64,000 nt of DNA from Deltaproteobacteria bacterium (GTDB lineage: Bacteria > Desulfobacterota > RBG-13-43-22): the NCBI GenBank assembly GCA_016219225.1, contig JACRBX010000097.1:1106-65105 (forward strand), in the 5' to 3' direction. Below the pieces are notes generated by a model. That model was not told the origin of the DNA and searched no databases. It saw only the letters and a list, made by a program, of their open reading frames with translations. This document shows, piece by piece, positions 48-54,791 of this stretch (positions are counted from its first letter, which is position 1; every line of letters begins with the position of its first letter). The position numbers were made by a program, and so were the translations under genes.

Positions 48-110
48 GTGCGTTCGGAGTTCGGAGTTCGGAGTTTAAAAAGGCCATTTTTATATTTCGT
101 GGACCCCCTG
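48..110 (-). repeat. Heptamer-array element: (GTTCGGA)x3 at 52-72, plus the reverse-complement core at 86-109
   Basis: Tandem GTTCGGA is read directly. The reverse complement of 86-109 is GGGGGTCCACGAAATATAAAAAT, which matches the core GGGGaCNCCACGAAGCATGAAAAT seen at 12547, 13832, 46507 and 54149. Confidence 0.75.
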
Positions 111-143
111 GAGTCTGGGGTTCAGCAGGAGAAGGAGGTCGTC

Positions 144-9820: not shown

Positions 9821-11074
9821 ATGAAAGAGCAAAGTTTTCTCAGCCCCTATCGCATCCTGGATTTGACCGATGAAAAGGGACTGATCTGCGGTAAGTTCCT
9901 CAGGGATCTCGGGGCCAAGGTGATCAAGATCGAAAAACCCGGTGGGGATCCGGCCCGGAATATCGGTCCCTTCTATCATGATATCCAGGATCCCGAAAAA
10001 AGTCTTTTCTGGTTTTCCTTGAACACCGGCAAGAAGGGGATCACCCTGGATATCACTCGACCCAAAGGAAAAGAAATTTTCCGGGAATTGGTCAAAGGTG
10101 CGGACTGTGTTCTGGAATCCTTTCCACCCGGCACACTGGATGGCCTGGAACTCGGCTACAAAGCGTTATGCCTGATAAAATCCGACCTGATCATGACTTC
10201 CATCACCCCTTTCGGAGATAAGGGACCTTACCGGGATTATAAAGGATCGGATCTTATCCTCTGGGCCTTATCGGGCCTGCTCTTTATCTGCGGGGATCCG
10301 GACCGGCCTCCGGTCAGGATAAGCCTGGAACAATCATACCTGCACGCCGGTGCCGACGGGGCCGCCGGCACGGTCATGGCCCTCTTCCATCGGGGTCGAT
10401 CGGGGAAAGGGCAGCAGGTTCAGGTATCGATTCTCAAGGCCATGGAACGTGTGGCCTATACGGCCCACATCCTCTGGGACGCCCGGGGCAAAATCCTGAG
10501 AAGGCCCGGAAGCGCCTTGAGAATTCCCCCTCTTGGTACGAAGACCCCTCTCATCTGGTCCTGTAAGGACGGCTATGTGGCCTTCTATTTATTCGGAGGC
10601 GCCATGGGTGCCGTGAGTAATCCGGCCCTCACTCAATGGTTGGATGAAGAAGGTCTGGCCAGTGAAGTCATGAAGGCCATGGATTGGCCTAAATTTGATA
10701 TTGGAACAACCCTTCAAGAAGACATTGACCGTCACATTGTCGGACCGATCGCCGAATTTTTCAAAGGCCGCACCAAGAAAGAACTTTGGGAAGGCGGCAT
10801 AAAAAGACGGGTCATGGTCTATCCGGTTAATGATGCCCATGGGGTGCTGAACGACCAGCAGCTCAAGGAAAGAAATTTTTGGGCCAGGGTCGCACATACC
10901 CATCTTGAGGATACCCTGGATTATCCCGGGCCTTTTATCAAAGTGGAAGGGGAACTTTGCCAGGTCAGGGGACGGGCCCCTTTGATCGGGGAACACAACG
11001 AGGAAATCTATGTAAATGAACTCGGGCTATCGGGAGAAGATCTGGTGCGGTTAAAGGCGGAGGGGGTTATTTAG
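9821..11074 (+). CDS. Family III CoA-transferase (CaiB/BaiF family)
   Basis: The N-terminus YRILDLTDEKGLICGKFLRDLGAKVIKIEKPGGDPAR is typical of the family, and the length is about 417 aa. Confidence 0.85.
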   Translation: MKEQSFLSPYRILDLTDEKGLICGKFLRDLGAKVIKIEKPGGDPARNIGPFYHDIQDPEKSLFWFSLNTGKKGITLDITRPKGKEIFRELVKGADCVLESFPPGTLDGLELGYKALCLIKSDLIMTSITPFGDKGPYRDYKGSDLILWALSGLLFICGDPDRPPVRISLEQSYLHAGADGAAGTVMALFHRGRSGKGQQVQVSILKAMERVAYTAHILWDARGKILRRPGSALRIPPLGTKTPLIWSCKDGYVAFYLFGGAMGAVSNPALTQWLDEEGLASEVMKAMDWPKFDIGTTLQEDIDRHIVGPIAEFFKGRTKKELWEGGIKRRVMVYPVNDAHGVLNDQQLKERNFWARVAHTHLEDTLDYPGPFIKVEGELCQVRGRAPLIGEHNEEIYVNELGLSGEDLVRLKAEGVI

Positions 11075-11272
11075 ATTTTGGATTTTAGATTTCGGATTTC
11101 GGATTTAAAAGAAACAGCATTCCCATGATCCGTGGTGCTCCCCCCGGACATAAGGGTTTAGTACGAAAATAGATTTTTAACCACTTTGGCCTCTGTTGGG
11201 GCTTCGTAGGGGCGGTATTTTCATGCTTAAGGGGTTTTTCCTTTGAGCTTTGAGCTTTCAGCTTTCAGCTAT
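11074..11272 (-). repeat. Two tandem heptamer-array elements filling the intercistronic gap
   Basis: (GATTTYG)x4 at 11074-11106 and (CTTTGAG/CTTTCAG)x4 at 11241-11270. Reverse-complement cores sit at about 11125-11150 and 11213-11236. A reverse-complement tail motif (TCTATTTTCGTACTAAACC) is also present. Confidence 0.7.
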
Positions 11273-11280
11273 TTTATAGG

Positions 11281-12501: not shown

Positions 12502-12546
12502 TCATCCCCAGACAGCATGTATCTGTATTAAACCCTTATACCCCTT

Positions 12547-12685
12547 GGGGACACCACGAAGCATAAAAATATTTTTTAGGGGCGATGGGCGATGGGCAAG
12601 GTTAAACGGGTTTATGGGTTATTATTCGCCTATGGCCTATAGCCTCGTGCCTATAGCCTGAATTTTTCTATTTTCGAACTAAATC
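12547..12685 (+). repeat. Heptamer-array element (core, two partly complementary arrays, tail)
   Basis: Core GGGGACACCACGAAGCATAAAAAT at 12547-12570. Arrays (GGCGATG)x2+GGCAAGG at 12581-12601 and (GCCTATR/GCCTCGT)x4 at 12628-12660. Tail CTATTTTCGAACTAAATC at 12668-12685, just before the RBS of the next gene. Confidence 0.8.
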
Positions 12686-12696
12686 ACAGGAGCAGC

Positions 12697-13851
12697 ATGA
12701 CGGATCTGAAAGAGATTATCGACAAGGGGATTGAAAAATATAACCGGGACAAGGTGGGGAAGATCATCCGCCCCCCACAGGGGAACGAATGGGCCACCAG
12801 GGATGCCATCAGACACTTCGCCAACGGGCTGGGTGACCCCAATCCCCTCTGGCGGGATGAAGACTATGCCCAAAAGAGCCCTTATGGCGGCATCATTGCC
12901 CCGCCGTTCTTTTTGAACGCCGTATCTGAAGGTCAGGCCATTATCGGACTTCCTGGTTTGATTTCAACCTTTGTGGGTTCTGAATGGGAATGGTTTAAAC
13001 CGATCCGGATCAATGATCGATTTTCCGTGACCAATAGGCTCCTGGAGCTTAAAGAGTTGCCGGATAATAACGGCCGGCGCCGTTTATTACAATCCGGCAT
13101 TCTGCGTTATTCCGATCAAAGGGGGGAAGCCGTCGGACAATGCCAATGGAATATGATGCGTACGGAAATAAAGCCGGGTCAAAGCAAACGCAATGAGACG
13201 TCTAACGAGCCGGCCCAAAAAGGATCTCAGCCCTACAGTGAAGATGCGTTAAAGAAAATCTATGCGGCTGTTGAAGCTGAAGAGATCAGAGGGAACATTC
13301 CCAGATTTTTCGAAGAAGTAAAATTGGGTGAGACGTTGAAACCGGTGGTCAAAGGACCGTTGTCTATTTCCGATATGGTGGCCTGGGCCATAGGGACCGG
13401 CTGGCACCGCATCGAATTGGCCCATGGTCCGAAATTGCTGCACTTGCGGGCCAACCCCGGTCTTTCCTATATTGATCCGGATTCGGGGAGTCCTGAGCCG
13501 ATTGCCAATTCTCATTTTTGGCCTTCGGCGGCCAGGATTCTGATGGGCTCCTCCCTTCCCCTGGATTTGGGTTTTCAACGGGTCAGTTGGCTGGGCCATC
13601 TGATTACCAACTGGATGAGTGATTTCGGTTTTCTGAAAAAACTGGCGGCCCGTCTCAAGGGCCTGGTACGATTTGGGGATACGACCTGGTGTCATGGAAA
13701 GGTTATTGGGAAAAGGCAAGAGGCAGAAGGCTGTCTGGTGGATTTGGATCTTTTTTGCAAAAACCAGCACGGGGAGATCACCACTACAGGCCAGGCCGTG
13801 GTGCAGCTCCCCTCTAAGCATTCATGCCCCAGGGGACGCCACGAAGCATGA
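12697..13851 (+). CDS. MaoC-like (R)-specific enoyl-CoA hydratase/dehydratase, double hot-dog
   Basis: The N-terminal region (RDAIRHFANGLGDPNPLWRDEDYA...GGIIAPPFF) is typical of MaoC_dehydrat_N, followed by a second hot-dog-like half. The last ~9 codons and the stop lie inside a repeat core. Confidence 0.7.
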   Translation: MTDLKEIIDKGIEKYNRDKVGKIIRPPQGNEWATRDAIRHFANGLGDPNPLWRDEDYAQKSPYGGIIAPPFFLNAVSEGQAIIGLPGLISTFVGSEWEWFKPIRINDRFSVTNRLLELKELPDNNGRRRLLQSGILRYSDQRGEAVGQCQWNMMRTEIKPGQSKRNETSNEPAQKGSQPYSEDALKKIYAAVEAEEIRGNIPRFFEEVKLGETLKPVVKGPLSISDMVAWAIGTGWHRIELAHGPKLLHLRANPGLSYIDPDSGSPEPIANSHFWPSAARILMGSSLPLDLGFQRVSWLGHLITNWMSDFGFLKKLAARLKGLVRFGDTTWCHGKVIGKRQEAEGCLVDLDLFCKNQHGEITTTGQAVVQLPSKHSCPRGRHEA

Positions 13852-13910
13852 AAATAGGTTTTCGACGAACGCCGAACGCTAAACGACGAACGTTATTTTC
13901 GCACTAAATC
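13832..13910 (+). repeat. Heptamer-array element (core, array, tail)
   Basis: Core GGGGACGCCACGAAGCATGAAAAT at 13832-13855. Array CGACGAA CGCCGAA CGCTAAA CGACGAA at 13863-13890. Tail TTATTTTCGCACTAAATC at 13893-13910. Confidence 0.85.
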
Positions 13911-13946
13911 TTCTGTTTTTAAACGCCTACAGGAGGATAAGCTTTG

Positions 13947-17871: not shown

Positions 17872-18014
17872 GTTACTGGTTTCTCGTTACTCGTTTTAAT
17901 ACAAAAATAAGTTCGGGGTTTAGAGTTCGGAGCAAACCATTTTCATGATTCGAGGTGTTCCGGCGGAGCATGAGAGTTTAACCAGCAACCAGTAACCAGT
18001 AACCAGTAACGAGC
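17872..18014 (-). repeat. Nested composite heptamer-array element
   Basis: Outer inverted arrays of GTTACTG-type heptamers: 17872-17895 versus (AACCAGT)n at 17980-18014. The inner array GTTCGGG GTTTAGA GTTCGGA sits at 17911-17931. The reverse-complement core (..ATTTTCATGATTCGAGGTG..) sits at 17937-17966. Confidence 0.75.
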
Positions 18015-18089: not shown

Positions 18090-19022
18090 ATGAAGGAAGT
18101 GGGTATCATCGGTGCCGGGACCATGGGTCACGGCATTGCCCAATGTTTTACCGTCAAAGGCTGGCAGGTCCGGCTTTATGATGCCAGACCGGAAACATTG
18201 AAAACAGCGCCAGACCGCATCCGGGCTAATCTGAATGTTTTTGTAGAAGCCGGGGTCATAGATCCGGACACGGCCCGGGCCGCAGCGGAGCAGGTGATCC
18301 TTTGTGATACATTAGCCTTGGCAGCCCAAGGCCCGGAACTCATCATAGAGACGATCAGCGAAGAACTGGATCTTAAGCGAAAGTTATTTACTGAACTGGA
18401 AGGACTGGTCCCCCCGGAAACCATCTTCTGCACCAACACCTCGGCCATCAGCATCACTTCCATCTGCCGCTATCTCAAACATCGGGAGCGGGCACTGGGG
18501 ACCCATTTCTGGAACCCTCCCCACGTCCTGCCCTGTGTCGAAATTATAAAAAGCCAATATACCTCCGAGGACGTCTTCGAAAAGGTGGTCTCTATCATAG
18601 CGGCTATCGGCAAAGAGCCGGTGCGGGTCCATAAAGATGTTCCGGGATTTTTGGGTAACCGGATGCAGCACGCCTTGCAGCGGGAGGCCATGAGCATCGT
18701 GGAGCAGGGCATTGCCTCCCCGGAGGAGGTGGACCGGGTCGTTAAATTCGGTTTCGGCCTGCGTCTGGCCCTTATGGGGCCTTTGGAACGAGCCGATCTG
18801 GGGGGTCTGGATATCACTTATAAGGTTCAGAAATATTTACTCCCCCATCTGTGCAACGAAATCGAACCTTCTGCGCTCTTAGCTGAAAAAGTAGCCGAAG
18901 GTCATCTGGGGGCCAAGAGCGGCCAGGGCTACTATCCCTGGCCCCCGGAAAAGACCGCTGAAACCATCAGAACCAGGGACCGTCTGCTTTTGGACCTCAT
19001 CAAATTGATCTTTGGGCCTTAA
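18090..19022 (+). CDS. 3-hydroxyacyl-CoA (3-hydroxybutyryl-CoA) dehydrogenase
   Basis: Rossmann motif IGAGTMGHGIA, the FWNPPH motif, and a C-terminal domain typical of the HBD/FadB family. Confidence 0.9.
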   Translation: MKEVGIIGAGTMGHGIAQCFTVKGWQVRLYDARPETLKTAPDRIRANLNVFVEAGVIDPDTARAAAEQVILCDTLALAAQGPELIIETISEELDLKRKLFTELEGLVPPETIFCTNTSAISITSICRYLKHRERALGTHFWNPPHVLPCVEIIKSQYTSEDVFEKVVSIIAAIGKEPVRVHKDVPGFLGNRMQHALQREAMSIVEQGIASPEEVDRVVKFGFGLRLALMGPLERADLGGLDITYKVQKYLLPHLCNEIEPSALLAEKVAEGHLGAKSGQGYYPWPPEKTAETIRTRDRLLLDLIKLIFGP

Positions 19023-19149
19023 CAGGTTGCTGAAAAAGGTCCAGATACAAGGCGCCCGAAATCCAGAGGAATGAGGCGTACATAAAAGTACGTCGCAATG
19101 ACGAAGGATGAGGGCAACACGGTAGATGGACCTTTTTGAGCAACCTGTT
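19021..19149. repeat. ~130-bp palindromic MITE-like element
   Basis: Terminal inverted repeats AACAGGTTGCTGAAAAAGGTCCA (19021-19043) and TGGACCTTTTTGAGCAACCTGTT (19127-19149), with 1 mismatch. An inner hairpin GGCGTAC..GTACGTC is present. Confidence 0.7.
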
Positions 19150-19172
19150 AAAAAAAGTTTTTTCGCATCCCG

Positions 19173-22694: not shown

Positions 22695-22737
22695 GGGCGC
22701 TTCTCTTGAACTTTGAGCTTTGAGCTTTCAGCTATTT
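22695..22737 (+). repeat. Heptamer array (CTTGAAC TTTGAGC TTTGAGC TTTCAGC TATTTT)
   Basis: Nearly identical to the array at 11241-11275, including the trailing CAGCTATTTT. Confidence 0.7.
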
Positions 22738-22739
22738 TC

Positions 22740-23084
22740 TCAACTCTTCCGAATAAAATGCGGTATCTCCGCCGGAACGGGGAAAACGATTTCAACAAAG
22801 CCGGCATAGCGCCCTTCCTGATACCAGGGGGTTTGATAAATGAGGCGATGCTGCCCTTCTTTTTCAATGGAATACACATTGTCCTCCTGCCGGTCCATCA
22901 GCCCCTTCAATTTTTCCCGGGCCGCCTCGGGATGGCAGTCCAGGACATTGGTGCCGATCAGGTCCTTCCCCCCCTGTTTCTCGAAGCTTTTAATAGCCCT
23001 ATCATTCATATACAGGATAATCCCCTCCGGATCGCAAACCACAATCGCCCCCGGAAATTCCTTGACCCAAGCATGTTCCGTCAT
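22740..23084 (-). CDS. Stand-alone PAS-domain protein
   Basis: 114 aa. The IVVCDPEGIILYMNDRAIKSF...VLDCHPE pattern is typical of a PAS fold. Confidence 0.65.
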   Translation of the reverse strand: MTEHAWVKEFPGAIVVCDPEGIILYMNDRAIKSFEKQGGKDLIGTNVLDCHPEAAREKLKGLMDRQEDNVYSIEKEGQHRLIYQTPWYQEGRYAGFVEIVFPVPAEIPHFIRKS

Positions 23085-23156: not shown

Positions 23157-23480
23157 TTAAATAATTCTTTCCCCGGTGGTAATAATCTCTTTTATATACG
23201 GGTTTGTTTCATCAAAGTCCGATCTGGCAAAGGCGTGGGGTTCAATACTAAGGTCAATGTCCCATCTAAGCTGCATGAGTTCGAGATCATCCTTAATTCC
23301 ATCGATATCTTCCTTATCCAGAAAAACCGCCAAGTCGATATCGCTTTCGGGGTGTTGAGTGCCTTTAGCGTAAGATCCATATAAATAGAGCCGCCATATA
23401 CCGACCCGATTGTCCTTAAGACGATCAATATACTGATTGATTTTTTGGTATATTACCTGCTTATCTGTTGCAAGAGCCAT
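23157..23480 (-). CDS. Nucleotidyltransferase-domain protein (MNT-type antitoxin of a HEPN/MNT pair)
   Basis: The GSYAKGTQHPESDIDLAVF motif is a minimal nucleotidyltransferase signature. The gene overlaps the upstream HEPN gene by 28 nt. Confidence 0.8.
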   Translation of the reverse strand: MALATDKQVIYQKINQYIDRLKDNRVGIWRLYLYGSYAKGTQHPESDIDLAVFLDKEDIDGIKDDLELMQLRWDIDLSIEPHAFARSDFDETNPYIKEIITTGERII

Positions 23481-23788
23481 TGCCTAAACTCCTTGATCTT
23501 TTTGATGGAATCCTCTGTATATTCTTTGGTGGCCATTTGAAAAAACCTGTCTTTAAAATCAGGATATCGGGTACGAAGATTATACGTCGTTACCTCATCA
23601 AGAAAAAGCATCTGTTCCTTCGTTAGTTCAAGCCCGGCGTCTTTAGCGATTTTCAAAAGATTATGAATTCGAGGCGAGGCAATATCAACATTCCTGACGT
23701 AACAGGCTTTCAATAATTTTTCCAATACCAGATGCCCGACAAACAAGGACCACCCATAATGACTGTTGCTGAACAGACTTTCCATCAC
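23453..23788 (-). CDS. HEPN-domain protein (toxin of a HEPN/MNT pair)
   Basis: HEPN-like helices and an R-x4-6-H-type region (RTRYPDF). It is paired with the MNT gene. Confidence 0.75.
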   Translation of the reverse strand: MMESLFSNSHYGWSLFVGHLVLEKLLKACYVRNVDIASPRIHNLLKIAKDAGLELTKEQMLFLDEVTTYNLRTRYPDFKDRFFQMATKEYTEDSIKKIKEFRQWLLQQISR

Positions 23789-23964: not shown

Positions 23965-24231
23965 CTACCCATCCCGTACAACCGATTGTTCGCTGAGATT
24001 GATTCCAATCTCGTAAAGAAAATCGGGGGAAAAATCTGCATCATTTGGCCAAGTAACGGTATTGATATCCGGATTGACAGTAAAACGGCGGAAGTACTGG
24101 GGATCTTTAAGAGGTTCGAAGACAGGGCCGTCAAGGTGCAAGGCCAAGTCAACCATTTTTTCCTGACCATTTTCAAATCGAACCATAAGCTTATAATCGG
24201 ACAGATAGGTGGCTTCAGTAACGTAATGCAT
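23965..24231 (-). CDS. DUF2442-family protein
   Basis: Family-typical pattern YKLMVRFENGQEKMVDL...FEPLKDPQYF..V..D..TVTWPNDADFSPDFLY. Confidence 0.7.
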   Translation of the reverse strand: MHYVTEATYLSDYKLMVRFENGQEKMVDLALHLDGPVFEPLKDPQYFRRFTVNPDINTVTWPNDADFSPDFLYEIGINLSEQSVVRDG

Positions 24232-24241
24232 TGGACGCCTC

Positions 24242-24502
24242 TCAATCTAACGGTGGTATTGTCAATAAATTTTCCCGACGTTCTGCTCTTTGCCAGTTCT
24301 CCATCAGTTCTTGCCGGTGCTCAAACGCCCATTCCAAAACCAGGGAGATGGCCCTGCGGGGGAGAGACCCCTCAATAATCCCGAGGTCTGAAATCGCAAA
24401 GGCGGCTCTTTGCCCTGCATATTTTGCGTGGAAATGAGGGGGGGCATGTTCCTTATAATACATGGCGATTACAATTCCAAAAAATCTACTTATTTCCGGC
24501 AT
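24242..24502 (-). CDS. DUF4160-family protein (partner of DUF2442)
   Basis: Pattern MPEISRFFGIVIAMYYKEHAPPHFHAKY...LPRRAISLVLEWA..H..EL..NW. Confidence 0.75.
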   Translation of the reverse strand: MPEISRFFGIVIAMYYKEHAPPHFHAKYAGQRAAFAISDLGIIEGSLPRRAISLVLEWAFEHRQELMENWQRAERRENLLTIPPLD

Positions 24503-24645
24503 TGAAAACCACCTCCAAAACCTCGATTACCATACCTGGTCAATAAATACCACAATTTTGTCCGTAATTCCGACGGCATGGGAAACGAAACCTCTTTAAG
24601 TTAACGGCATTGGAACCAAACCTCGACTTACACCTAAAAGAAATG

Positions 24646-25206
24646 CTAATATGCTGTGGAGACTCTATACTTCTGGTTTCCAACCAGTGCTACATATTGG
24701 AGATGAAAATATTTCCTCATACGTAATAATATTCGAAACCATGAGGACTTGAACAGCAATAGCCCTTTGTCTAAATTGCTTATTGCTATGCAGGTCACCG
24801 CCTCCTCGTTGGTTTGTAAGGTAATTTGTCTCCTACAATATTTTTGACAGAGGTCATCAAAAAATTTCAGTTCATGTGACCGATCAGCGATATCTCGGGA
24901 TGCATCAGGGTGAACAGGAAAAAGGGATGAGCACCTGAGGGGTCTCACGTTTGTTATGTATACTATAGAACCCGTATTGTTCAGAAATTTCAAATTCACT
25001 CCATCGTAATCTTTGTTATCCATGGTCAGTTTACATTGGCTGAGTGAAACTGCAAGATTTGGAACATTCCTTACTTTTCGTCGTGTCCAAATAAACAAAA
25101 CCAAAGGCCAAAAAATGCCAGTAAAAACGATCGTGAGCCAATTTGGAAGGTCGTTTAATCTTATCCACGAGTAGGCGTCCAGAAATTCACTCCCAATGTC
25201 TTTCAT
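24646..25206 (-). CDS. Hypothetical membrane-anchored protein
   Basis: 186-aa ORF in AT-rich DNA with one N-terminal TM segment (WLTIVFTGIFWPLVLFIW). I recognised no family. Confidence 0.4.
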   Translation of the reverse strand: MKDIGSEFLDAYSWIRLNDLPNWLTIVFTGIFWPLVLFIWTRRKVRNVPNLAVSLSQCKLTMDNKDYDGVNLKFLNNTGSIVYITNVRPLRCSSLFPVHPDASRDIADRSHELKFFDDLCQKYCRRQITLQTNEEAVTCIAISNLDKGLLLFKSSWFRILLRMRKYFHLQYVALVGNQKYRVSTAY

Positions 25207-25386
25207 AAGACCTCCATGGGGGACGTATTCTATCTATTGATTATCTGGTTTACGAAAATATCTTTTTTAGCTTTCCAACCTTGCATCTACTCGGCGGATC
25301 GTCCACCAATTTATTAGATTTAAATTATGGTTAGCCCTAGGAGGGCACAATATTTTTATTTAATTTTCAACTACATACCATCATAA

Positions 25387-25436
25387 ATTGTGTTTTGATT
25401 GTGTTTTGATTGTGTTGAATTCCCCTAAAAACACAA
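25387..25436. repeat. 11-bp tandem repeat (ATTGTGTTTTG x2.8) plus an inverted partial copy (AACACAAT)
   Basis: Read directly: ATTGTGTTTTG ATTGTGTTTTG ATTGTGTTG at 25387-25417, and AAAACACAAT at 25427-25436. It lies between two minus-strand genes. Confidence 0.7.
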
Positions 25437-25455
25437 TTAATTCAAACCATCCATA

Positions 25456-25801
25456 CTAAATCGCAAACCATTTACCGGCTTTAGTTCGACCTTCCACTTT
25501 TATCTTTTTTTCTCCCTTTAACTCCTTTAACAAACCATGGATCTGGTACCTGGAAAGAGAGGGTAGGACTTGGGATAACTCTTCGAATTTGCATCCCCCT
25601 GGTCCGCACTCCTGAAAATGCTTTAAATTTATTGGCCAAAGAGTTATTGGTTTTTTTAAATTGGAAATATTTTAAATCTATTCGGGTAATGAATTGCTCA
25701 ATGTCCGGGAATGCTTCAATATAGTCATTGATTATCTCCGGGAAGGCTGAAATATCAAGCTTGGGCATGATTTCATCAGTCAGCAACGCCTTTTCGCCCA
25801 T
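25456..25801 (-). pseudogene. Small winged-helix protein gene interrupted by a 1-nt frameshift at an A7 run
   Basis: ORF 25481-25801 carries the N-terminal part. The +1 frame after the A7 run reads PITLWPINLKHFQECGPGGCKFEELSQVLPSLSRYQIHGLLKELKGEKKIKVEGRTKAGKWFAI, a wHTH-like C-terminus with no start codon, ending at 25456. Removing one A fuses the two frames. Confidence 0.45.
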
Positions 25802-25940
25802 AACGGCCCTGTTAATCCTGCCCCAAGTAAAAATATTTGTTTCATTTTTTGATCTTTTCTTGCTTAAAAATTCGAAGGAATCGTCGCTTTCTCTGCCAGC
25901 CTTTCTAATAGGCGAGCATCCCTATACCCATTAACTCTCA

Positions 25941-26192
25941 TTAATCTGGCTTTTCTGATTTTTTCTCTTTTGGATATTCCGCTTGTGCCTCACGAACCTC
26001 AATTTGACCCACAGGAACCTTTCCATTGGGATATCTGATAAATCGGGTTTTTTCATTTTTAAATTCATTTAAAAATCGGTTGAGAAGAGGATATCTTGTA
26101 CAAAGGCCCTGTCCAAACTGGGAGAATACTTTGCCGCTTCGAAAACCTGCCACTCTTTCAACAAATTCAATTAATTCTCCGTTATAAGACAC
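25941..26192 (-). CDS. Hypothetical protein (GTG start), possibly a remnant of a larger gene
   Basis: 83-aa ORF in AT-rich DNA. A 26-codon ORF lies directly upstream at 26182-26262 (MLISRIILKNWRNFKILDVRLGSRVL) and resembles the N-terminus of SMC/RecF-like AAA ATPases. Confidence 0.3.
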   Translation of the reverse strand: MSYNGELIEFVERVAGFRSGKVFSQFGQGLCTRYPLLNRFLNEFKNEKTRFIRYPNGKVPVGQIEVREAQAEYPKEKKSEKPD

Positions 26193-26617: not shown

Positions 26618-26893
26618 CTATCCTTTATAGCCTTTATAGCCTTTGTCATAGTATGGACTTTTATAGAAATCGCACTGCATACAACTGGCCACTTTCATGG
26701 CAAATTTCCCTTGCACCTTCCCCCCGCAGAGGGTGCCGGCTATCCAGGCACAATGCTTGCCGTGATTCGGGAAGGCAGGACAAACCCCCAATTCCTGGGC
26801 CTTGATTCCTCCTAATTGACGGCCACAATTTTTGAATTCCCAACAATTCACTGTATCCTCCTTGCCAATAAAATTCCTGAAGAAAAGTTTCAA
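26618..26893 (-). CDS. Small Cys-rich protein with an NCWEFKNCG motif (two-CW-domain-like)
   Basis: The NCWEFKNCGRQLGG...GVCPA...HCAWIAGTLCGGKVQG...CMQCDFY pattern has 8 Cys. The C-terminal KGYKGYKG is encoded by a 9-bp tandem repeat. Confidence 0.6.
   Translation of the reverse strand: MKLFFRNFIGKEDTVNCWEFKNCGRQLGGIKAQELGVCPAFPNHGKHCAWIAGTLCGGKVQGKFAMKVASCMQCDFYKSPYYDKGYKGYKG
26622..26648. repeat. 9-bp tandem repeat (CCTTTATAG x2 plus a partial copy) overlapping the 3' end of the Cys-rich gene
   Basis: Read directly from the sequence. Confidence 0.7.
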
Positions 26894-27169: not shown

Positions 27170-27204
27170 GCCGAAGGGGGAAGCTGGAAGCAGGAAGATA
27201 ATTT

Positions 27205-28377
27205 TCAGGCTTCTGAAACCGCCATCTCAAATTTTTCCACTAAAAAAAACTCCAACACTTCTCTGACCGCCCGAATCTGGTTGCCGAAAGGCAAAGGTTC
27301 CGACCCTCTGAAAAACAATCCCTTTTCAATATCTCCCCGCTGAGCGGCTGCCAGACGGGTCTCAATACAAAATTGTCCGGCAGCCGGATTGCCGGATTTG
27401 AAGCCGCAATGGATGAGGCAATTTAAATTGCGGATACATTTTGCCTGCTCCGGATCAGCGTTGGCCCTCATCTCAACTTCCTGAGCCAGATAACGCTTCA
27501 GCCAGGGTGTTCTCACCGCCCGCGCCGGAAGACCGGCCGCGCTCATAAAGGTGACGATATCCTTAGAAGTGGCTTCAGCCAGTACCCGTTTGAAGTTGAG
27601 ATGGGCATCACCTTCTTCGGTTACGGCAAAAGGGGTTCCGATTTGTGCGCCACTGGCGCCCAGGTTAAAAAGGTTCTTCAAAGTTAATAAAGAATTGATC
27701 CCGCCGGCAGGAATCAAAGGGATGCTGTTTACCTTAATCCCTAATTCCTTAAAGACGCCCCGAACCGCTTCCAACACATGGGTAAAGTCAAATTTGGGAT
27801 CCATGACTTCTTCTATCCGTGGTGATCCCAGATGTCCTCCGGCATATCGGGGGTGCTCGATCACAATGGCATCCGGCAGACGGTCTTTTCGCATCCATTT
27901 TTTCAAAACCGCCCGGACGCCACGCTCTTCGGATAATATGGGAATCAAGGCTACTTCATCAAAACCGCGTACCAGATCAGGCAGATCCATAGGCAACCCC
28001 GCTCCCATAATGATGGCATTAGCCCCACTGATACAGGCCTGACGCACCAGATCCGCGTAATGCGGCAAGGCCTTCATAACATTGACGGCCAAAAATCCGG
28101 CAGCCTTGCAGATGTCCCGGGCGCTTGTAATTTCCCGGTCCAAAGCCTCCAGATTGCTTTCGGCCAAAGTGGCATGGTCCCGGCAATTGCGCGTACGCTC
28201 CATGATGTCCGGATGCAAACGGCGCAACTCCACGCTGGCAATGGTCCCTATGGCACCTTCTTTGGCTACGGTTCCGGCCAGCCGATGGGCCGAAATCCCT
28301 ATGCCCATCCCGCCCTGGATAATGGGCAACAATTTTCGTCCTTTCAAAGTCAATAAAGGAAAAACAGATTTAATCAT
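27205..28377 (-). CDS. Nitronate monooxygenase-family FMN oxidoreductase (NPD / FabK-like)
   Basis: PIIQGGMGIGIS N-terminal motif and the later GAGLP and PAGGI motifs typical of PF03060-type TIM barrels. Confidence 0.8.
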   Translation of the reverse strand: MIKSVFPLLTLKGRKLLPIIQGGMGIGISAHRLAGTVAKEGAIGTIASVELRRLHPDIMERTRNCRDHATLAESNLEALDREITSARDICKAAGFLAVNVMKALPHYADLVRQACISGANAIIMGAGLPMDLPDLVRGFDEVALIPILSEERGVRAVLKKWMRKDRLPDAIVIEHPRYAGGHLGSPRIEEVMDPKFDFTHVLEAVRGVFKELGIKVNSIPLIPAGGINSLLTLKNLFNLGASGAQIGTPFAVTEEGDAHLNFKRVLAEATSKDIVTFMSAAGLPARAVRTPWLKRYLAQEVEMRANADPEQAKCIRNLNCLIHCGFKSGNPAAGQFCIETRLAAAQRGDIEKGLFFRGSEPLPFGNQIRAVREVLEFFLVEKFEMAVSEA

Positions 28378-28595: not shown

Positions 28596-29093
28596 TCAGG
28601 ACAGGGAAGATAAAACCTCGGCCGCTTCGTCCTGCACTTCGCCATCTTCGGCGATGGCCTTCAGAGTGCGGAGTTTGCTTAAAAAGGCCTGCTGGTCTCT
28701 CAGAGAGCGCCCGGGATAAACCGTCGCCATCTTTTTCAGCAATTCGACAACGATCTCGGGATCTTCATAATCCAGAAACAGGAACTGGGTCCCCCAATGG
28801 GTGGGAAGGCCGTATTCCTCGAGATATTGTTTGGCCAGAGCATGAAATTTACGGGATCCGAAATTCTCAAGCAAGGTACCGGCAGCCTTTTCATGGGCCG
28901 CGGTCCCCTGCTTGCCCCGGAAATGTTTATTGGCCTCTTTTAAGGCCATTTTTCGAAGCCATTCATCCTTGCCTTTTTTCCCCCGGGTCGGCCGAGGTCC
29001 TTTGGACACATGGCTGCTTCGATCCTTGCGTTGATCGATTTCCCGCCAGGACGGACGTTCCCGTTCCCGGTCTTCTTCATCGCGGTCGGACAT
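28596..29093 (-). CDS. Hypothetical protein with a highly charged N-terminus
   Basis: Clean 165-aa ORF with an ordinary C-terminal helical composition. I recognised no family. Confidence 0.55.
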   Translation of the reverse strand: MSDRDEEDRERERPSWREIDQRKDRSSHVSKGPRPTRGKKGKDEWLRKMALKEANKHFRGKQGTAAHEKAAGTLLENFGSRKFHALAKQYLEEYGLPTHWGTQFLFLDYEDPEIVVELLKKMATVYPGRSLRDQQAFLSKLRTLKAIAEDGEVQDEAAEVLSSLS

Positions 29094-29111
29094 GAAAACC
29101 CCCCCAAAAGA

Positions 29112-29180
29112 GCAAGGTGCAAGGTATAAGGTGTAGGGCTTAGAATTTTACCTTGAACCTTGGACCTTGAACCGTAAACC
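29112..29180. repeat. Hairpin built from complementary heptamer arrays
   Basis: The left arm is GCAAGGT GCAAGGT ATAAGGT GTAGGGC. The right arm is ACCTTGA ACCTTGG ACCTTGA ACCGTAA ACC. The arms pair with mismatches recurring at heptamer spacing. Confidence 0.75.
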
Positions 29181-29181
29181 T

Positions 29182-30540
29182 TTATTGATCATTCTTCAGC
29201 GGCGGTTGACCGGTTGACTCCAGGACACTCATCCACATATTGCCTCCCACATCCACTTGCTTTCTCCGGGCTCCTGCGGCCCGGATGGGGATATGAACAT
29301 ACTCATTGTTCCAGAGGCTGACCAGCATATTGGTTTTTCCGGCCATACCGGCATGGACGGCATGCTGACCCAAAAATCCGCAAAAGATACGATCGCTGGA
29401 ATTGGCCGGCTGGCTGCGAATGATATAACTGGGATCGATATATTTGAGATTGATCTCCATGTTAAGGTGGCTGAAATGCCGCCGGATGCGTTCGGCCAAA
29501 AAAATCCCGATGTCTTTTAATTTGATATTGCCGGAAGGATCTCTTTCTTCAGGGAGACCGTCCAGATATTTTTGTCCGGCCCCTTCGGCCACCACGATAA
29601 CCCCGTGCCCTCTCTCCTTCAGCCTTTTCTGCACGGCGGCTAATAACCCCTGAGGGCCTTCCAGATCAAAGTCGTATTCCGGGATCAACACAAAATTGAC
29701 CTCCCGGGAAGCCAGCGCGGCATGGGCGGCAATAAATCCGGAATAGCGCCCCATGAGCTTGACCATGCCGATACCATTGGGGGCCCCTACGGATTCGACA
29801 TGGGCGCTTCGAATTACCTTGGCGGCATCCTCTACGGCTGTTTCAAAGCCGAAAGATTTTTCCACTAACGAGATGTCATTGTCAATGGTCTTGGGGATAC
29901 CGATAACCGAAGTAATCAGCCCCCGTTTTTTTATTTCTTCGACGATGAGATCCGCCCCTCTTAATGTGCCGTCTCCTCCGATGGTAAAGAGGATATTGAT
30001 ATTGAGTTGTTGGAGGGTATCCACGATTTCTTCGACCTTATATTGACCCCTCGACGAGGAGAGGATCGTTCCCCCCAATTCATGGATATAAGAGACCCGT
30101 TCGGGAGTCAAATCAATGACCGGGTGGCCGTATTCTGGGATAAAACCTTGATATCCGTAAGGAATGCCAATAATATTCCGGACCCCGTAAATAAAATAAA
30201 GCTCTAAAACAATGGCCCGGATAACATCATTTTCCCCCGGGCATAACCCGCCGGCGGTAACGATTGCACATTTGGTCTTCTTGGGTGAAAAAAAAATTTT
30301 CTGCCGGGGCCCGGCCTTCTCAAAAGTCAAAGGGGGCTCCCCCTTCCGGAGGCATTCGAGAAAATGTTGTTCAGAAATGTCGATAAGGATCCTTTCCTGG
30401 TCATCGACAAAATTCTCGGAAGGGCGAAGGCAAGTCAGGGGATCTTCAAAAGGGAGACAGTGGACAGGGGAATCGATCTTGGGAATCCCTATTTGCTCAA
30501 TGACGGTGTTTTCCTTGGTCAATTGGTTTAAATAACTCAA
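29182..30540 (-). CDS. 6-phosphofructokinase (ATP- or PPi-dependent, long form)
   Basis: TAGGLCPGEND, TIGGDGTLRGA and GIPKTIDNDI motifs. Confidence 0.85.
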   Translation of the reverse strand: MSYLNQLTKENTVIEQIGIPKIDSPVHCLPFEDPLTCLRPSENFVDDQERILIDISEQHFLECLRKGEPPLTFEKAGPRQKIFFSPKKTKCAIVTAGGLCPGENDVIRAIVLELYFIYGVRNIIGIPYGYQGFIPEYGHPVIDLTPERVSYIHELGGTILSSSRGQYKVEEIVDTLQQLNINILFTIGGDGTLRGADLIVEEIKKRGLITSVIGIPKTIDNDISLVEKSFGFETAVEDAAKVIRSAHVESVGAPNGIGMVKLMGRYSGFIAAHAALASREVNFVLIPEYDFDLEGPQGLLAAVQKRLKERGHGVIVVAEGAGQKYLDGLPEERDPSGNIKLKDIGIFLAERIRRHFSHLNMEINLKYIDPSYIIRSQPANSSDRIFCGFLGQHAVHAGMAGKTNMLVSLWNNEYVHIPIRAAGARRKQVDVGGNMWMSVLESTGQPPLKNDQ

Positions 30541-32975: not shown

Positions 32976-33153
32976 GGATTCAAGGGGTCAAGGGGTCAAG
33001 GATTCAGATGAAAGGCTTGGAATTTAAACCCTGCAGTTCCCCGGAGGGGAACCTTTTTCATAGCTCGACGAATCGGCTCCCAAAAGGGAGCCTCTTCGGA
33101 AGCTCGGCTGAGCCGAGCGGGCCGAGCGGCTGAATCCTGGAATCCTTGAACCC
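32976..33153. repeat. Structured intergenic block: inverted 8-mer arrays flanking three perfect hairpins
   Basis: GATTCAAG GGGTCAAG GGGTCAAG GATTCAG (32976-33007) opposes CTGAATCC TGGAATCC TTGAACCC (33130-33153). The hairpins are GTTCCCCggaGGGGAAC (33036-33052), GGCTCCCaaaaGGGAGCC (33075-33092) and GCTCGGCtgaGCCGAGC (33102-33118). Confidence 0.75.
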
Positions 33154-46057: not shown

Positions 46058-46480
46058 ATGATCCCCAAGGATACAGAAGGGAAGATCCTCATTTTGGCCA
46101 CCGATCATTGCGCTTATCCAGGGGCCAATTCGGTCGGACAGGCCCACAGCCCTTACCCGGCCAACACCTATATCCTCAGGGTGCCTTCTCCGGTGCTCTT
46201 TCCCGAAACCTTTTATCTGGATTGTTTTCAAAAAGGGATCGGGGGCATTCTCATCATGACCTGCGGCCATGAATGCCCCTATCCCGGGGCCTACGACGCC
46301 CTGGCCAAACGAATCGACCGGGTTTACGCCTTAATGAAAAAGAAGGACCTGGATATCCGCCGGCTCCGTTTAACGGCCATCTGTACGGTCTGCAACCGGG
46401 CCTTTCTCAAAGAGGTGAACGAAATGAACAACCTGGTTAAAGGACTGGAGCCAGTGGGCGTAAGGAGCGCTGCCGCTTGA
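46058..46480 (+). CDS. MvhD/FlpD-like protein (methyl-viologen-reducing hydrogenase delta-subunit family), divergent
   Basis: It aligns by eye to MvhD (ILRV..P..F....F..G..G.L...C....C.Y..G), but several canonical Cys positions are substituted. Confidence 0.7.
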   Translation: MIPKDTEGKILILATDHCAYPGANSVGQAHSPYPANTYILRVPSPVLFPETFYLDCFQKGIGGILIMTCGHECPYPGAYDALAKRIDRVYALMKKKDLDIRRLRLTAICTVCNRAFLKEVNEMNNLVKGLEPVGVRSAAA

Positions 46481-46506
46481 GGGAGGAGGCTGGAGGCCGT
46501 TATCTG

Positions 46507-46582
46507 GGAAGGCCACGAAGCCTGAAAATGGTTTATTCCGAACTCCGAACTCTAAACTCCGAACTTTATTTTCATGTTAATC
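46507..46582 (+). repeat. Heptamer-array element (core, array, tail)
   Basis: Core GGAAGGCCACGAAGCCTGAAAAT at 46507-46529. Array TCCGAAC TCCGAAC TCTAAAC TCCGAAC at 46537-46564. Tail TTTATTTTCATGTTAATC at 46565-46582, directly before the RBS of the next gene. Confidence 0.85.
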
Positions 46583-46592
46583 TAAGGAAATT

Positions 46593-47897
46593 ATGGAGCA
46601 TAGAAAATTAAGAACATTTGATACCCTGGTTATCGGCGGCGGTATCGCCGGACTCCAGGCGGCCCTGGATCTGGCCGAACAGGGTTTCAAGGTGGCCATC
46701 GTGGAAAAGGACGCCTCTATCGGTGGGAAGATGATCCGTCTTTCCAAAGTATTTCCCACATTGGACTGTGCCAGTTGCATCACCACGCCCAAAATGGCCG
46801 CCGCCGCCCATCATGAAAATATCACCCTCTTTACCTATTGTGATCTGAAATCTCTGGACCGTCAAAACGGTCTTCTTTCCGCCAGGGTGACCCAAAAGCC
46901 CCGGTATGTGGACCCGGCCAAATGTATCGGCTGCCGGCAGTGCGAATATGGCTGTCCGGTCTATGTGCCCGATGCGGAACAGGGGGGGTTCGGTGCCCGC
47001 AAAGCCATTTATATCCCCTTTTCCAATGCCGTCCCCCAGATTGCTCTGCTGGATGTGGCCAACTGCGCCTTATGCGGCAAATGCGCCAAAATCTGTCCGA
47101 CCCAGGCCGTGGATTATTTGGAGCAGCCCGCGGATTTTGTCATCCAAAGCAAGACGGCGATTCTGGCAACCGGATTTAAGTTGACCCCTTTGAATCAAAA
47201 GGAAGAATACGGCCAGGGTCGGGTTGAAAATGTCATTACCTCCTTGCAGATGGAGCGCCTTCTGGCCCCTCACGGACCGTTCCAGCGGGTCATCCGTCCC
47301 TCCGACGGCAAGGAGCCGGGCTCCATCGCCTTTGTGCAGTGCGCCGGTTCCCGGGATAAAAGTCTGGGGATCCCTTATTGTTCCAGGGTCTGCTGCATGT
47401 ACGCCATCAAGCAGGCCATGCTCCTTTCCGGCGCTCTGCCCATGGCCGATATTACCATTTACTATATGGATATCCGGGCCTTCGGCAAAGGCTATGAACA
47501 GTTCTTTCAAAATGCCCGGGCCATGGGGATCGAGTTTGTCAAAGCCAAGATAGCCAAAATAAAATCCGGTGAAAATCAGAATGTGGTCTTGAGTTATGAA
47601 AATCAGGAAGGGGACGGCGGCCTGATGCATCGGGAACATGATCTGGTTTCCCTTTCCCTGGGGATGGTGCCGGATTGGAACCCCGGAACAGTCTGCCCGG
47701 TGACCATGGGTGACGATGCCTTTATCCAACCCTACAGAGTCCACTTGGCACCGGCCTTGACCAATATGGAAGGGGTTTTTGCCGCCGGGGTGGCCCTGGG
47801 ACCCAAAGATATCGTCGATACCATTGCCGAAGCCGGGGCCGCGGCAATGGAAGCCTCCAACTATTTAACGGCCATGAAAAGAAAAGAGGCGGCTTGA
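46593..47897 (+). CDS. hdrA: HdrA-like FAD/Fe-S oxidoreductase (short, QmoA-sized) with an inserted 2x[4Fe-4S] ferredoxin domain
   Basis: GGGIAGLQAALDLAE FAD motif, FPTLDCASCITTPKM, two CxxCxxCxxxCP motifs, and CAGSRD...YCSRVCCMYA. Confidence 0.85.
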   Translation: MEHRKLRTFDTLVIGGGIAGLQAALDLAEQGFKVAIVEKDASIGGKMIRLSKVFPTLDCASCITTPKMAAAAHHENITLFTYCDLKSLDRQNGLLSARVTQKPRYVDPAKCIGCRQCEYGCPVYVPDAEQGGFGARKAIYIPFSNAVPQIALLDVANCALCGKCAKICPTQAVDYLEQPADFVIQSKTAILATGFKLTPLNQKEEYGQGRVENVITSLQMERLLAPHGPFQRVIRPSDGKEPGSIAFVQCAGSRDKSLGIPYCSRVCCMYAIKQAMLLSGALPMADITIYYMDIRAFGKGYEQFFQNARAMGIEFVKAKIAKIKSGENQNVVLSYENQEGDGGLMHREHDLVSLSLGMVPDWNPGTVCPVTMGDDAFIQPYRVHLAPALTNMEGVFAAGVALGPKDIVDTIAEAGAAAMEASNYLTAMKRKEAA

Positions 47898-49965: not shown

Positions 49966-49993
49966 GTTCGGATTTCGGAATGCGGATTTCGGA
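49966..49993 (+). repeat. Heptamer array (GTTCGGA TTTCGGA ATGCGGA TTTCGGA)
   Basis: Read directly. It lies immediately after the hdrA stop. Confidence 0.7.
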
Positions 49994-50037
49994 ATTAAAA
50001 CGAGTCATGAGGAATAATTCCAAATAGAAGGAAAACC

Positions 50038-50433: not shown

Positions 50434-50461
50434 AGGTGTTATGCTGCGACGAAAAGAACCT

Positions 50462-52408: not shown

Positions 52409-52433
52409 GGATTCCGGTTTTCACCGGAATGAC
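52409..52433 (-). repeat. Hairpin repeat GTCATTCCGGTGAAAACCGGAATCC (5' exon side of the intron, minus strand)
   Basis: Exact inverted copy of 50409-50433. The intron starts immediately after ...GGAATCC. Confidence 0.85.
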
Positions 52434-52530
52434 GGAGAGGTTGTCGACGTTTTTTGAAAAAGCTAAACTGATACAAAAAATTCTATCCATTTTGCGTAGA
52501 AATTTATTCCTAAGTTACTAAGGGAGAACG

Positions 52531-54133: not shown

Positions 54134-54148
54134 GCCTTCAGGTTCTGT

Positions 54149-54315
54149 GGGGCGCCACGAGGCATGAAAATGCTTCACAAGGCGATAGGCAATGGGCCAG
54201 GGGCTATAGGTTAAATGATCTTAAGATTTTTCCTTCACCCATAGCCTATAGCCTATTGCCCATCGCCATTTTGAGTTTTTTCGCACTTGAAACTTGCATC
54301 TTGCATCTTGAACCC
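54149..54315 (+). repeat. Heptamer-array element with a long imperfect hairpin and a second array
   Basis: Core GGGGCGCCACGAGGCATGAAAAT at 54149-54171. The arm GGCGATA GGCAATG GGCCAGG GGCTATA GG (54181-54211) pairs with CATAGCC TATAGCC TATTGCC CATCGCC (54237-54267). A further array ACTTGAA ACTTGCA TCTTGCA TCTTGAA sits at 54284-54311. Confidence 0.85.
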
Positions 54316-54724: not shown

Positions 54725-54791
54725 GAGTTATTACGAGACCATCAAGGTTTGGATTACCAAGGGTCGACGTGGGTTGAAAGGAGTGGTTTGC

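Follow-up and report, generated by a model that had tools for sequence, protein, structure and literature searches.

What are the tandem arrays of seven-nucleotide units that lie between genes in this stretch of DNA, and how did they come to be there? The stretch comprises 64,000 nucleotides of a Deltaproteobacteria bacterium assembly (GCA_016219225.1, contig JACRBX010000097.1) and is referred to as the window throughout. An earlier inspection of the letters alone, here called the sequence-only reading, had proposed a dispersed family built from a variable heptamer section between a conserved 5' part and a conserved tail, and this proposal was confirmed. The core GGGGACNCCACGAAGCATGAAAAT occurs on the plus strand at 12547, 13832, 46506 and 54148 with at most three mismatches, i.e. 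four matches compared with none expected from 100 shuffles. The tail TATTTTCGNACTAAA is exact at 11157 (minus strand), 12669 and 13894 and has two mismatches at 17895 (minus strand); with at most two mismatches allowed, six matches were found compared with 0.46 expected. We conclude that the heptamer arrays are part of a real dispersed family of small non-coding repeat elements, which lie between genes and in gene ends, and that this family is apparently undescribed so far. The element is probably a composite, non-coding and non-autonomous mosaic repeat. It would act on the level of DNA and resembles BOX elements, bacterial interspersed mosaic elements (BIME) or BrickBuilt in style.

Read 5' to 3' on its own strand, the element starts with an end motif, S, of the sequence (T)ATTTTCGTANTAA, continues with AACCCTCATG, a hairpin, the near-invariant CCACGAAGCATGAAAAT and a variable slot, and finishes with a second, direct copy of S. 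The hairpin stem of 4-9 bp changes in sequence while its pairing is kept, and the motif with this covarying hairpin is about 45 nt long. The core of the sequence-only reading is real and recurrent, but it covers only the 3' arm of the hairpin (its GGGGAC) plus the motif that follows and not the full module. The slot extends over 2 to about 300 nt before ATTTTCGTANTAA recurs and contains nothing, direct heptamer arrays, inverted heptamer arrays that fold as long hairpins, or other small repeats; in other genomes it is occupied by a GTCATTCCCGCGAAAGCGGGAATCC repeat or by GC-rich hairpins. The left S was found in about 70% of 106 copies. As left and right S are direct copies, the element has terminal direct repeats of about 14 nt and not inverted ones. 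At the right end conservation stops straight after TAA, and TAA is common at both junctions. Copies occur singly, nested with other small repeats, or in tandem and then in the same direction, as in L109, L116, L071 and L100 (L-numbers denote loci from other genomes used for comparison).

A covariance model of the full 5' module, R1, was run against the window with filters off, following a check suggested with the original observation. It recovered six confident copies and two marginal matches; about five copies are degenerate. The copies lie in both orientations at a density of about one per 6-10 kb:

12512 to 12685, plus strand: E1, a complete copy and the one first observed; R1 match 12512-12570 (E = 1.7e-10, 55.8 bits), degenerate left S TATCTGTATTAAAC at 12520-12533, hairpin at about 12539-12553, core end at 12570, slot with a G.U-rich hairpin from GGGCGAT and GCCTATA heptamers at 12580-12659, right S CTATTTTCGAACTAAATC at 12668-12685, next start codon at 12697.
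13798 to 13910, plus strand: E2, inside the 3' end of a MaoC-like gene; R1 match 13798-13855 (E = 8.1e-09, 48.6 bits), though element-derived sequence begins at about 13822; direct array GACGAAC/GCCGAAC/GCTAAAC/GACGAAC at 13863-13892, right S TTATTTTCGCACTAAATC at 13893-13910.
46468 to 46582, plus strand: E3, with degenerate hairpin and intact core (46506-46529); R1 match 46468-46529 (E = 0.1, 17.7 bits), array of two TCCGAAC, TCTAAAC and TCCGAAC at 46537-46565, tail TTTATTTTCATGTTAATC at 46565-46582, next start codon at 46593.
54114 to 54315, plus strand: E4; module and R1 match 54114-54171 (E = 5.9e-10, 53.5 bits), inverted arms GGCNATR and YATNGCC at 54181-54210 and 54238-54267 forming a stem of about 30 bp within a GAAAAT...ATTTT bracket, tail-like ATTTTGAGTTTTTTCGCAC at 54268-54286, then a TTGAAAC/TTGCATC array at 54287-54315.
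17872 to 18014, minus strand: E5; module and R1 match 17939-17997 (E = 1.2e-05, 34.8 bits), internal TCCGAAC/TCTAAAC array at about 17913-17935, S TATTTTTGTATTAAA at 17895-17909, the whole enclosed by inverted arrays GTTACTN (17872-17895) and AACCAGT (17979-18014).
11070 to 11280, minus strand: two tandem, partly degenerate copies; AATCCGA-type array at 11070-11106, 5' module and R1 match 11119-11177 (E = 0.0095, 22.3 bits) with a perfect S within it at 11157-11171, partial core AAGCATGAAAAT at 11217-11228, marginal R1 match 11217-11277 (13.6 bits, E = 0.92), CTTTGAG/CTTTCAG array at 11241-11270.
27201 to 27253, minus strand: marginal R1 match.
48 to 135, minus strand: degenerate copy at the window edge, below the R1 threshold; array of 3.4 GTTCGGA units at 52-75, decayed core (reverse complement) GGGGGTCCACGAAATATAAAAATGG at 85-109.
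29091 to 29195, plus strand: bracket-only remnant, ACATGAAAAC at the stop of the upstream gene and CTTTATTGATC at the far end; inverted CAAGGT and ACCTTGA arrays at 29112-29133 and 29150-29182.
49966 to 50012, minus strand: remnant with CCTCATG (reverse complement of 50005-50011), TTTTAAT and a TCCGAAA/TCCGCAT array at 49967-49995.
22695 to 22745, plus strand: solitary CTTTGAG/CTTTCAG array followed by CTATTTTC, homologous to the array at 11241-11270 and devoid of the hairpin module.

The core copy noted earlier at 86-109 (minus strand) is visible by eye but too degenerate for an R1 score. Nesting was seen both ways: a heptamer hairpin lies inside the slot in E1 (12512-12685) and E4 (54114-54315), and in E5 the element itself lies inside an inverted heptamer pair (17872-18014). 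Several arrays are inverted pairs that fold as hairpins, namely 54166-54282 with 49-nt arms that are 73% complementary, 17872-17895 with 17987-18010 (24 nt, 88% complementary) and 29113-29169; the right arm of the remnant at 29091-29195 is homologous to the slot of L023. The proposal that the tail ends 10-35 nt before the next start codon in three cases agrees with the measured distances of 11, 33 and 10 nt (12685 to 12697, 13910 to 13944 and 46582 to 46593). In E1, TAAACCCTTATACCC of the 5' module (12529-12543) is in addition 80% complementary to GGTTAAACGGGTTTA (12600-12614) at the apex of the heptamer hairpin, which may mean that the two pair over a distance or that part of the module has been copied in inverted form.

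The hairpin itself is selected as structure. Stem variants include TGCCCC/GGGGCA, TGACCC/GGGTCA, TGCCGC/GCGGCG, TGCTCC/GGAGCA and TGGCC/GGCCA. In an alignment of 85 sequences, 80.8% of the cells of six stem pairs were paired compared with 70.0 +/- 1.2% in shuffles, and changes on both sides were seen in 51 cells compared with 17.8. Sliding the partner columns left 31-61% paired. These figures were obtained with an explicit structure and pair counts; RNAalifold predicted no structure on the raw MAFFT alignment, in which the hairpin is misaligned. The flanks are conserved as sequence, whereas the stem sequence differs between copies, even in one genome. GAAAAT and ATTTTC indeed bracket the arrays, as had been proposed, and this bracket can pair and closes most predicted folds. 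However, six copies with GCATAAAAAT, a G to A change in the core, carry a tail without a compensating change, and the bracket is therefore proven as conserved sequence and not as a pair.

A covarying hairpin raises the question of whether the element works as a structured RNA, either as a cis-acting processing, stabilizing or terminating signal or as a small RNA gene, with hairpin and GCAUGAAAAU/AUUUUCGUAC bracket acting as RNA. Besides covariation, such a function would fit the frequent U.G at the closing position, the commonest form of the bracket, which needs a U.G pair, and the G.U-rich heptamer hairpin of E1 (at 12553), whose predicted fold is far more stable in sense than in antisense orientation (-34.9 vs -20.8 kcal/mol). 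The three best-scoring window copies moreover run in the direction of their operons and stop 10-33 nt short of the following start codon. Over 112 copies, however, 21 were co-directional with both neighbors and 17 antisense; stricter gene calls gave 9 and 12, with equal conservation, and orientations are mixed within the window and within single contigs (CAZVHO010000052, CAZVHO010000013). Folding was better in sense in 25 copies and in antisense in 16, with a mean difference of -1.4 kcal/mol and hence no consistent asymmetry. In the stem interior, G.U-type and A.C-type mismatches are about equally frequent (18 vs 25), so that G.U is not in excess. The uncompensated G to A copies likewise speak against an RNA, as does the density of one copy per 6-10 kb, which is unlike that of an RNA gene, and no element matched an Rfam family at the gathering threshold or with E up to 10. 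Taking the absence of orientation bias, folding asymmetry and G.U excess together, we place the element at the DNA rather than the mRNA level and regard an RNA function as unlikely. An intrinsic-terminator scan flagged no element, but it allows loops of at most 8 nt and so says nothing about hairpins of this length. Two further candidates were rejected: a sigma-54 promoter in the core by inspection, because GG and GC are one base too close together and the GG falls within the variable stem, and the cores of hammerhead or other known self-cleaving ribozymes, again by inspection and because Rfam gave no hit.

We then asked how firmly the heptamers belong to the element. Tandem Repeats Finder (TRF) reported 14 period-7 arrays in the window (starting at 52, 11070, 11241, 12580, 12628, 13866, 17872, 17979, 22706, 29112, 29150, 46537, 49967 and 54241); the array described earlier at 54284-54311 is evident in the sequence at 54287-54315 but falls under the TRF score threshold. 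In 575 kb of element-bearing loci, 69 period-7 arrays of 2.8-5.3 copies were counted compared with 11 or fewer for any other period. The surroundings of modules, out to 200 nt, account for 7.2% of the bases and hold 32 of the 69 arrays (binomial p = 1e-18), a six-fold enrichment; for arrays of other periods the count was 4 of 38 (Fisher p = 2e-4). The claimed association of core and arrays is thus beyond chance. Per 100 kb, element-bearing loci contain 12 period-7 arrays, compared with 3.7 for unrelated control loci and 1.1 for relatives devoid of elements.

A rival view takes the arrays for ordinary microsatellites produced by slippage, with no tie to the repeat beyond a common location in AT-rich intergenic space. 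In many bacteria, heptamers are the most frequent of the long simple-sequence repeats (Mrazek 2007, as relayed in PMC4679880), 37 of the 69 arrays are more than 200 nt away from any module, and both bracket motifs were found at just 9 of 61 array sites. These numbers indicate that the arrays are a wider genome feature than the core; in the window, arrays outside confident copies mostly adjoin degenerate remnants. Against plain slippage, the enrichment beside modules is not seen for other periods, the nine doubly bracketed sites compare with 0.27 expected, and element-free relatives are nearly without such arrays. Furthermore, identical patterns recur between loci and genomes with the odd TCTAAAC unit in the same place: TCCGAAC, TCCGAAC, TCTAAAC, TCCGAAC is found at 46537, 17913 (minus strand) and 13863 and in L015, L053 and L102. 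An origin as unrelated microsatellites is essentially excluded. Nor are the units specific to single loci, as had been supposed. TCCGAAC/TCTAAAC arrays occur in L015, L064 and L102 and AACCTTG-type arrays in eight loci; entire elements, from core through array to tail, share 86% identity between the window and L053 or L015 (window 13837-13914 for L053). The window alone has 12 or more types of unit, 38 canonical units were counted over 79 loci, and copy numbers range from 2 to 5. The shared unit patterns and whole elements imply that arrays are inherited within subfamilies and vary in length, rather than being made afresh at each locus.

A different possibility is that the heptamers or S form an array of binding sites with a host function, recognized by a protein that covers about 7 nt, be it a regulator, a nucleoid-associated or a single-strand-binding protein. 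Period 7 outnumbers all other periods, most units fit NNNNAAC, core and S are kept as sequence and not as pairs, and precedents have been proposed for four-heptamer elements of Geobacter metallireducens (PMC2700814) and for TAACTGA repeats of Beggiatoaceae (PMC4679880). Yet the units differ so widely by site (GGCGATG, CAAGGT, CTTTGAG, TCCGAAC, AACCAGT) that one binder is unlikely. The neighboring genes are unrelated in function (CoA-transferases, Hdr-like, DsrE-like, an outer membrane efflux protein, a periplasmic binding protein), and orthologous operons work without elements. We therefore judge a binding-site array to be quite doubtful.

In the orthologous operons, the elements of the window turned out to be insertions. 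The MaoC-like protein has relatives of 81% identity on Logan and JGI contigs and of 76% identity in Smithella sp. PtaU1.Bin162, which identifies the window as derived from a Smithella-like member of the Syntrophales. The gene order CoA-transferase, CoA-transferase, MaoC, DUF169 is the same in relatives at 65-76% and at 76-81% protein identity, and R1 found no module copy in either set (L121-L127 and L149-L153, respectively). The intergenic distances differ as follows:

CoA-transferase to CoA-transferase: 73-111 nt in L149-L153, 206 nt in the window.
CoA-transferase to MaoC, the site of E1: 48 nt in L149, L150 and L153, 195 nt in the window.
MaoC to DUF169, the site of E2: overlapping or abutting in L149-L153, 92 nt in the window.

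The comparison of orthologous regions, which the sequence-only reading had asked for, hence shows that the window copies are insertions. E2 sits inside ancestral coding sequence and has replaced the last 10 codons of the MaoC-like gene, whose stop is now the TGA of the element (13849-13851, within GCATGAAAAT); the protein ends in LPSKHSCPRGRHEA in the window and in LPSKSPVNESPKEDKF in L150. The old gene tail and its ribosome-binding site persist downstream of E2 (13911-13946). For this one resolved empty site, the ancestral TCTAAATC is represented on both sides as CTAA/TCTAA, which fits a 4-5 bp duplication (CTAA) or recombination at an S-like site.

Other small elements were observed in the same gaps. 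In L124, which represents another lineage, the interval between CoA-transferase and MaoC is filled by a different transposable element of the miniature inverted-repeat type (MITE; at about 2010-2130) with terminal inverted repeats CCCCGTTAGAAA and TTTCTAACGGGG, so that unrelated small elements have repeatedly settled in these operon gaps. At 54538-54727 the window holds a MITE, about 190 bp in length, with terminal inverted repeats that are themselves hairpins (CGTCATTCCCGTGAAAACGGGAATCCAG and CTGGATTCCCGCCTTCGCGGGAATGACG); a copy of its family fills the orthologous gap in L125, and single arms lie inside the slot of the heptamer-bearing element in L007, L083, L082 and L087.

The family is not private to this genome. 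A pattern scan with the 17-mer CCACGARGCMTRAAAAT over 596 Gb, one genome per species, gave at least 120 stretches. About 555 chance matches are expected in such a volume; about 40 of the listed stretches are chance matches and about 80 share far more than the 17-mer. Among the matches listed, true copies occur in at least about 40 species-level genomes of at least six phyla, namely Thermodesulfobacteriota, Acidobacteriota, Chloroflexota, Bacillota, Planctomycetota and Schekmanbacteria. Many of the carriers are Thermodesulfobacteriota (Syntrophales, Smithellaceae, Syntrophobacteraceae, Desulfobacteraceae, Desulfofustis); others are Chloroflexota (Anaerolineae, Dehalococcoidia), Ca. Scalinduaceae and Ca. 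Schekmanbacteria. The Bacillota carrier Ca. Acetocimmeria has eight copies on seven contigs. Subfamilies, heptamer arrays included, are common to genomes of several phyla. Both ends carry lineage-specific S variants, GTAGTAGTG in Acetocimmeria and GRAACAAAC in the metagenome-assembled genome JBLIRP01. As left and right variants change together, S appears to be part of the element, and the existence of such variants argues against mis-binning. In JBLIRP01, two to four tandem module units lie inside 27-bp terminal inverted repeats (L109 4840-5175, L116 6850-7115); these repeats, GGGGTCAGGTCTTGAAATATCAGTTTT and AAAACTGACAATTCAAGACCTGACCCC, belong to another repeat family and the whole is a composite element. 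As to carriage by phages and plasmids, all 19 pattern matches in IMG/VR lacked the module and were chance matches, and PLSDB gave no match.

How could the composite repeat have spread? Copies would be mobilized by an enzyme that acts in trans, the element itself not coding for it, and that would read conserved single-stranded motifs beside a folded hairpin; such a mode of recognition would explain why the flanks are kept as sequence and the stem only as structure. The slot between GAAAAT and ATTTTC may tolerate or favor further insertions. Heptamer arrays would be slot or flank modules copied along with the element, with array length (2-5 units) changing by slipped-strand mispairing, and the (A)CTAAAC terminus of the element may have seeded some of them. 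Host effects would be by-products: previously overlapping genes would be uncoupled and operon gaps widened, and hairpins flanked by A- and T-runs could attenuate or stabilize transcripts in either direction.

A more specific version of this scheme has folded single-stranded DNA mobilized by an HUH/Y1 enzyme, of the type acting on repetitive extragenic palindromes (REP) with their associated tyrosine transposases (RAYT) or of the IS200/IS605 type, or by an attC-like tyrosine recombinase, with YTAA as cleavage or target motif on both sides. Several features point this way. Terminal inverted repeats are absent, the structure-conserved hairpin adjoins conserved single-stranded motifs, the foot of the stem accepts T.G on one strand only, TAA stands at the left junction and exactly where conservation ends on the right, the resolved empty site has CTAA on both sides, and left and right S co-change between lineages. 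Known Y1 enzymes, though, recognize hairpins of conserved sequence, and the differing stems of copies in one genome therefore count against such an enzyme. In addition, the GC-rich stem and the AT-rich bracket hairpin are mutually unlike, orientations are mixed over short distances in contrast to the strong replication-strand bias of IS200/IS605, and no Y1 gene was seen in the 8 kb flanking each copy, a weak negative obtained with three query sequences. On balance this particular enzymology seems improbable.

Some observations also weigh against the broader reading as a non-autonomous mosaic repeat spread in trans. Clustering of open reading frames (ORFs) in the 8-kb flanks revealed no recurrent neighbor family, transposase or recombinase; the clusters around copies are common families only, sigma-54 activators and ABC ATPases. 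The sequence-only reading had suggested looking for a co-occurring transposase or RAYT gene. Local BLAST of the 8-kb flanks and the 64-kb window with three Y1 transposase sequences (IS200, IS608, YafM) found none, which is weak evidence. Among the loci analyzed there was no ORF-bearing long version, and the element itself has direct (T)ATTTTCGTANTAA copies at its ends where terminal inverted repeats were not found. A clean target-site duplication was not established, a single empty site having been resolved, and the nearest relative compared is only 81% identical in protein and not one of a close-strain pair. Window copies differ among themselves as much as from copies of other genomes; the spread is therefore old, which leaves room for selection for a host function. 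Finally, T.G at the closing position of the stem was counted in 20 copies compared with C.A in one, and this bias, together with the strand-unequal heptamer hairpin of E1, hints at a strand-specific single-stranded form.

We also considered a bolder proposal, in which the module with CCACGAAGCATGAAAAT and S is the site of a structure-specific single-strand enzyme passed between anaerobe phyla and in which the same machinery makes the heptamers, e.g. by templated addition or by nicking and slippage at the (A)CTAAAC end, and not by ordinary replication slippage. This is a long shot; if true, it would define a new class of mobile element and may give a handle on the heptamer repeats of cyanobacteria, Beggiatoaceae and Geobacter.

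Among known systems, the composite repeat is closest in build to BOX and BrickBuilt. BOX elements of Streptococcus pneumoniae have the structure boxA, a number of boxB units and boxC. The BrickBuilt MITE of Porphyromonas gingivalis consists of a leader, 23-nt tandem repeats and a tail (PMC4596501). As in these families, a conserved 5' module, a variable count of short tandem units and a conserved 3' module form an intergenic, multicopy, non-coding element with stable secondary structure, which clusters with and inserts into other small repeats (PMC10969869). There is, however, no sequence similarity. The units, which vary by subfamily, have 7 nt in place of 45 or 23 nt; the slot can be vacant or occupied by inverted arrays or by repeats of an unrelated kind; direct rather than inverted repeats form the ends; and the distribution covers several phyla and not one species. 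The match is thus one of architecture; BOX and BrickBuilt are species-level families of which our element is not a member. With REP and BIME of enterobacteria and pseudomonads it shares the abundance of extragenic hairpin repeats that form mosaics with other motifs in operons and gene ends (PMC2817692). The REP palindrome, though, is conserved in sequence, preceded by GTAG and alternating in orientation, whereas here the stem varies, the flanks are fixed and tandems are direct; no RAYT gene was seen with the three Y1 queries in the 8-kb flanks and the 64-kb window. The family is of the same general kind as the mosaic repeats BIME, BOX and BrickBuilt, from which the sequence-only reading had set it apart, but it is not homologous to them.

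The likeness to cyanobacterial short tandemly repeated repetitive (STRR) heptamers, drawn at the outset, holds for period 7, for 2-6 units and for the intergenic position, but not for a single fixed unit, given the 12 or more unit types in the window. More broadly, STRR, the TAACTGA repeats of Beggiatoaceae (PMC4679880) and the four- and five-heptamer elements of G. metallireducens (PMC2700814) resemble the present arrays in having 2-6 heptamers, mostly intergenic and often just upstream of start codons, in many places per genome and in scattered lineages; TAACTGA even rotates to the NNNNAAC form (TGATAAC). They differ in using one or few fixed units per genome, where many unit types coexist here, and have not been described with a hairpin module or bracket, where a large share of our arrays is attached to one conserved element.

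Chunjie, a MITE of Geobacter uraniireducens (Chen et al. 2008, as summarized in PMC10969869), is likewise a small non-autonomous element of related anaerobes that inserts within an operon and has many full and partial copies. By that description alone, it differs in having terminal inverted repeats and target-site direct repeats and in being confined to one species. Classical MITEs in general are similarly small, non-coding, multicopy and missing from orthologous sites, but our element lacks terminal inverted repeats and no related autonomous insertion sequence with the same ends was present in the loci analyzed. YTAA at the junctions recalls palindrome-associated elements derived from IS200/IS605, which insert 3' of a fixed tetra- or pentanucleotide; the two dissimilar hairpins and the mixed orientations agree less well with such elements, whose subterminal hairpins are similar at both ends and whose replication-strand bias is strong. 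Like attC sites, the element has short conserved boxes that flank a variable folding center between consecutive genes, and recognition would be by structure; the RYYYAAC ... GTTRRRY boxes are missing, however, and no integrase was found. As the gene order is the same in element-free relatives, the genes are not cassettes. CRISPR arrays, with identical repeats of 24-48 nt and unique spacers of similar length, differ in that our units have 7 nt and abut directly; the spacers of 8-26 nt between the tandem 60-78-nt units of L109 resemble one another, unlike CRISPR spacers. The view that the family is no CRISPR array, attC site or classical REP was therefore upheld, and it is absent from Rfam as well. 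In the literature, the core string gave only unrelated hits, and reports on heptamers, MITEs and repeats of Syntrophus and Smithella yielded analogues and not this family.

Small mosaic repeats are usually bound to a species or genus. The present module is conserved in six or more phyla of anaerobes, most of them uncultured, and is linked to heptamer arrays, for whose origin in bacteria there has never been an explanation. The family reshapes operons in that genes are uncoupled, gene ends rewritten and spurious ORFs created; in Syntrophales and their neighbors it will fragment or confound metagenome assembly and annotation. If a dedicated enzyme were found, the family would represent a new mobilization system and open the heptamer question to experiment.

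Several features of the window are of separate interest. A MITE of about 130 bp at 19022-19151 with terminal inverted repeats of about 23 bp (AACAGGTTGCTGAAAAAGGTCCA and TGGACCTTTTTGAGCAACCTGTT) has copies in different genomes, at 88% identity in L033 (3753-3882) and at 81% in L024. A group II intron occupies 50440-52520 on the minus strand, about 430 nt from the degenerate element at 49966-50012 in the Hdr-like gene cluster. Its Domain V (50462-50540; RF00029, 52.2 bits) is the sole Rfam hit in the window at the gathering threshold, and its ORF (50557-51894, minus strand) encodes a reverse transcriptase/maturase with RVT_1 and GIIM domains. Perfect tandem repeats of other periods that are unattached to the element are found at 25387-25416 (11 nt, 2.7 copies), 26622-26644 (9 nt, 2.6 copies) and 32980-33001 (8 nt, 2.8 copies). 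An ORF with a HEPN domain (23453-23788) overlaps a nucleotidyltransferase ORF (23157-23480, minus strand) and forms a candidate toxin-antitoxin pair with it; this pair adjoins the stretch of lowest GC content in the window (24000-26000, GC 0.41), which contains several small ORFs with no Pfam match.

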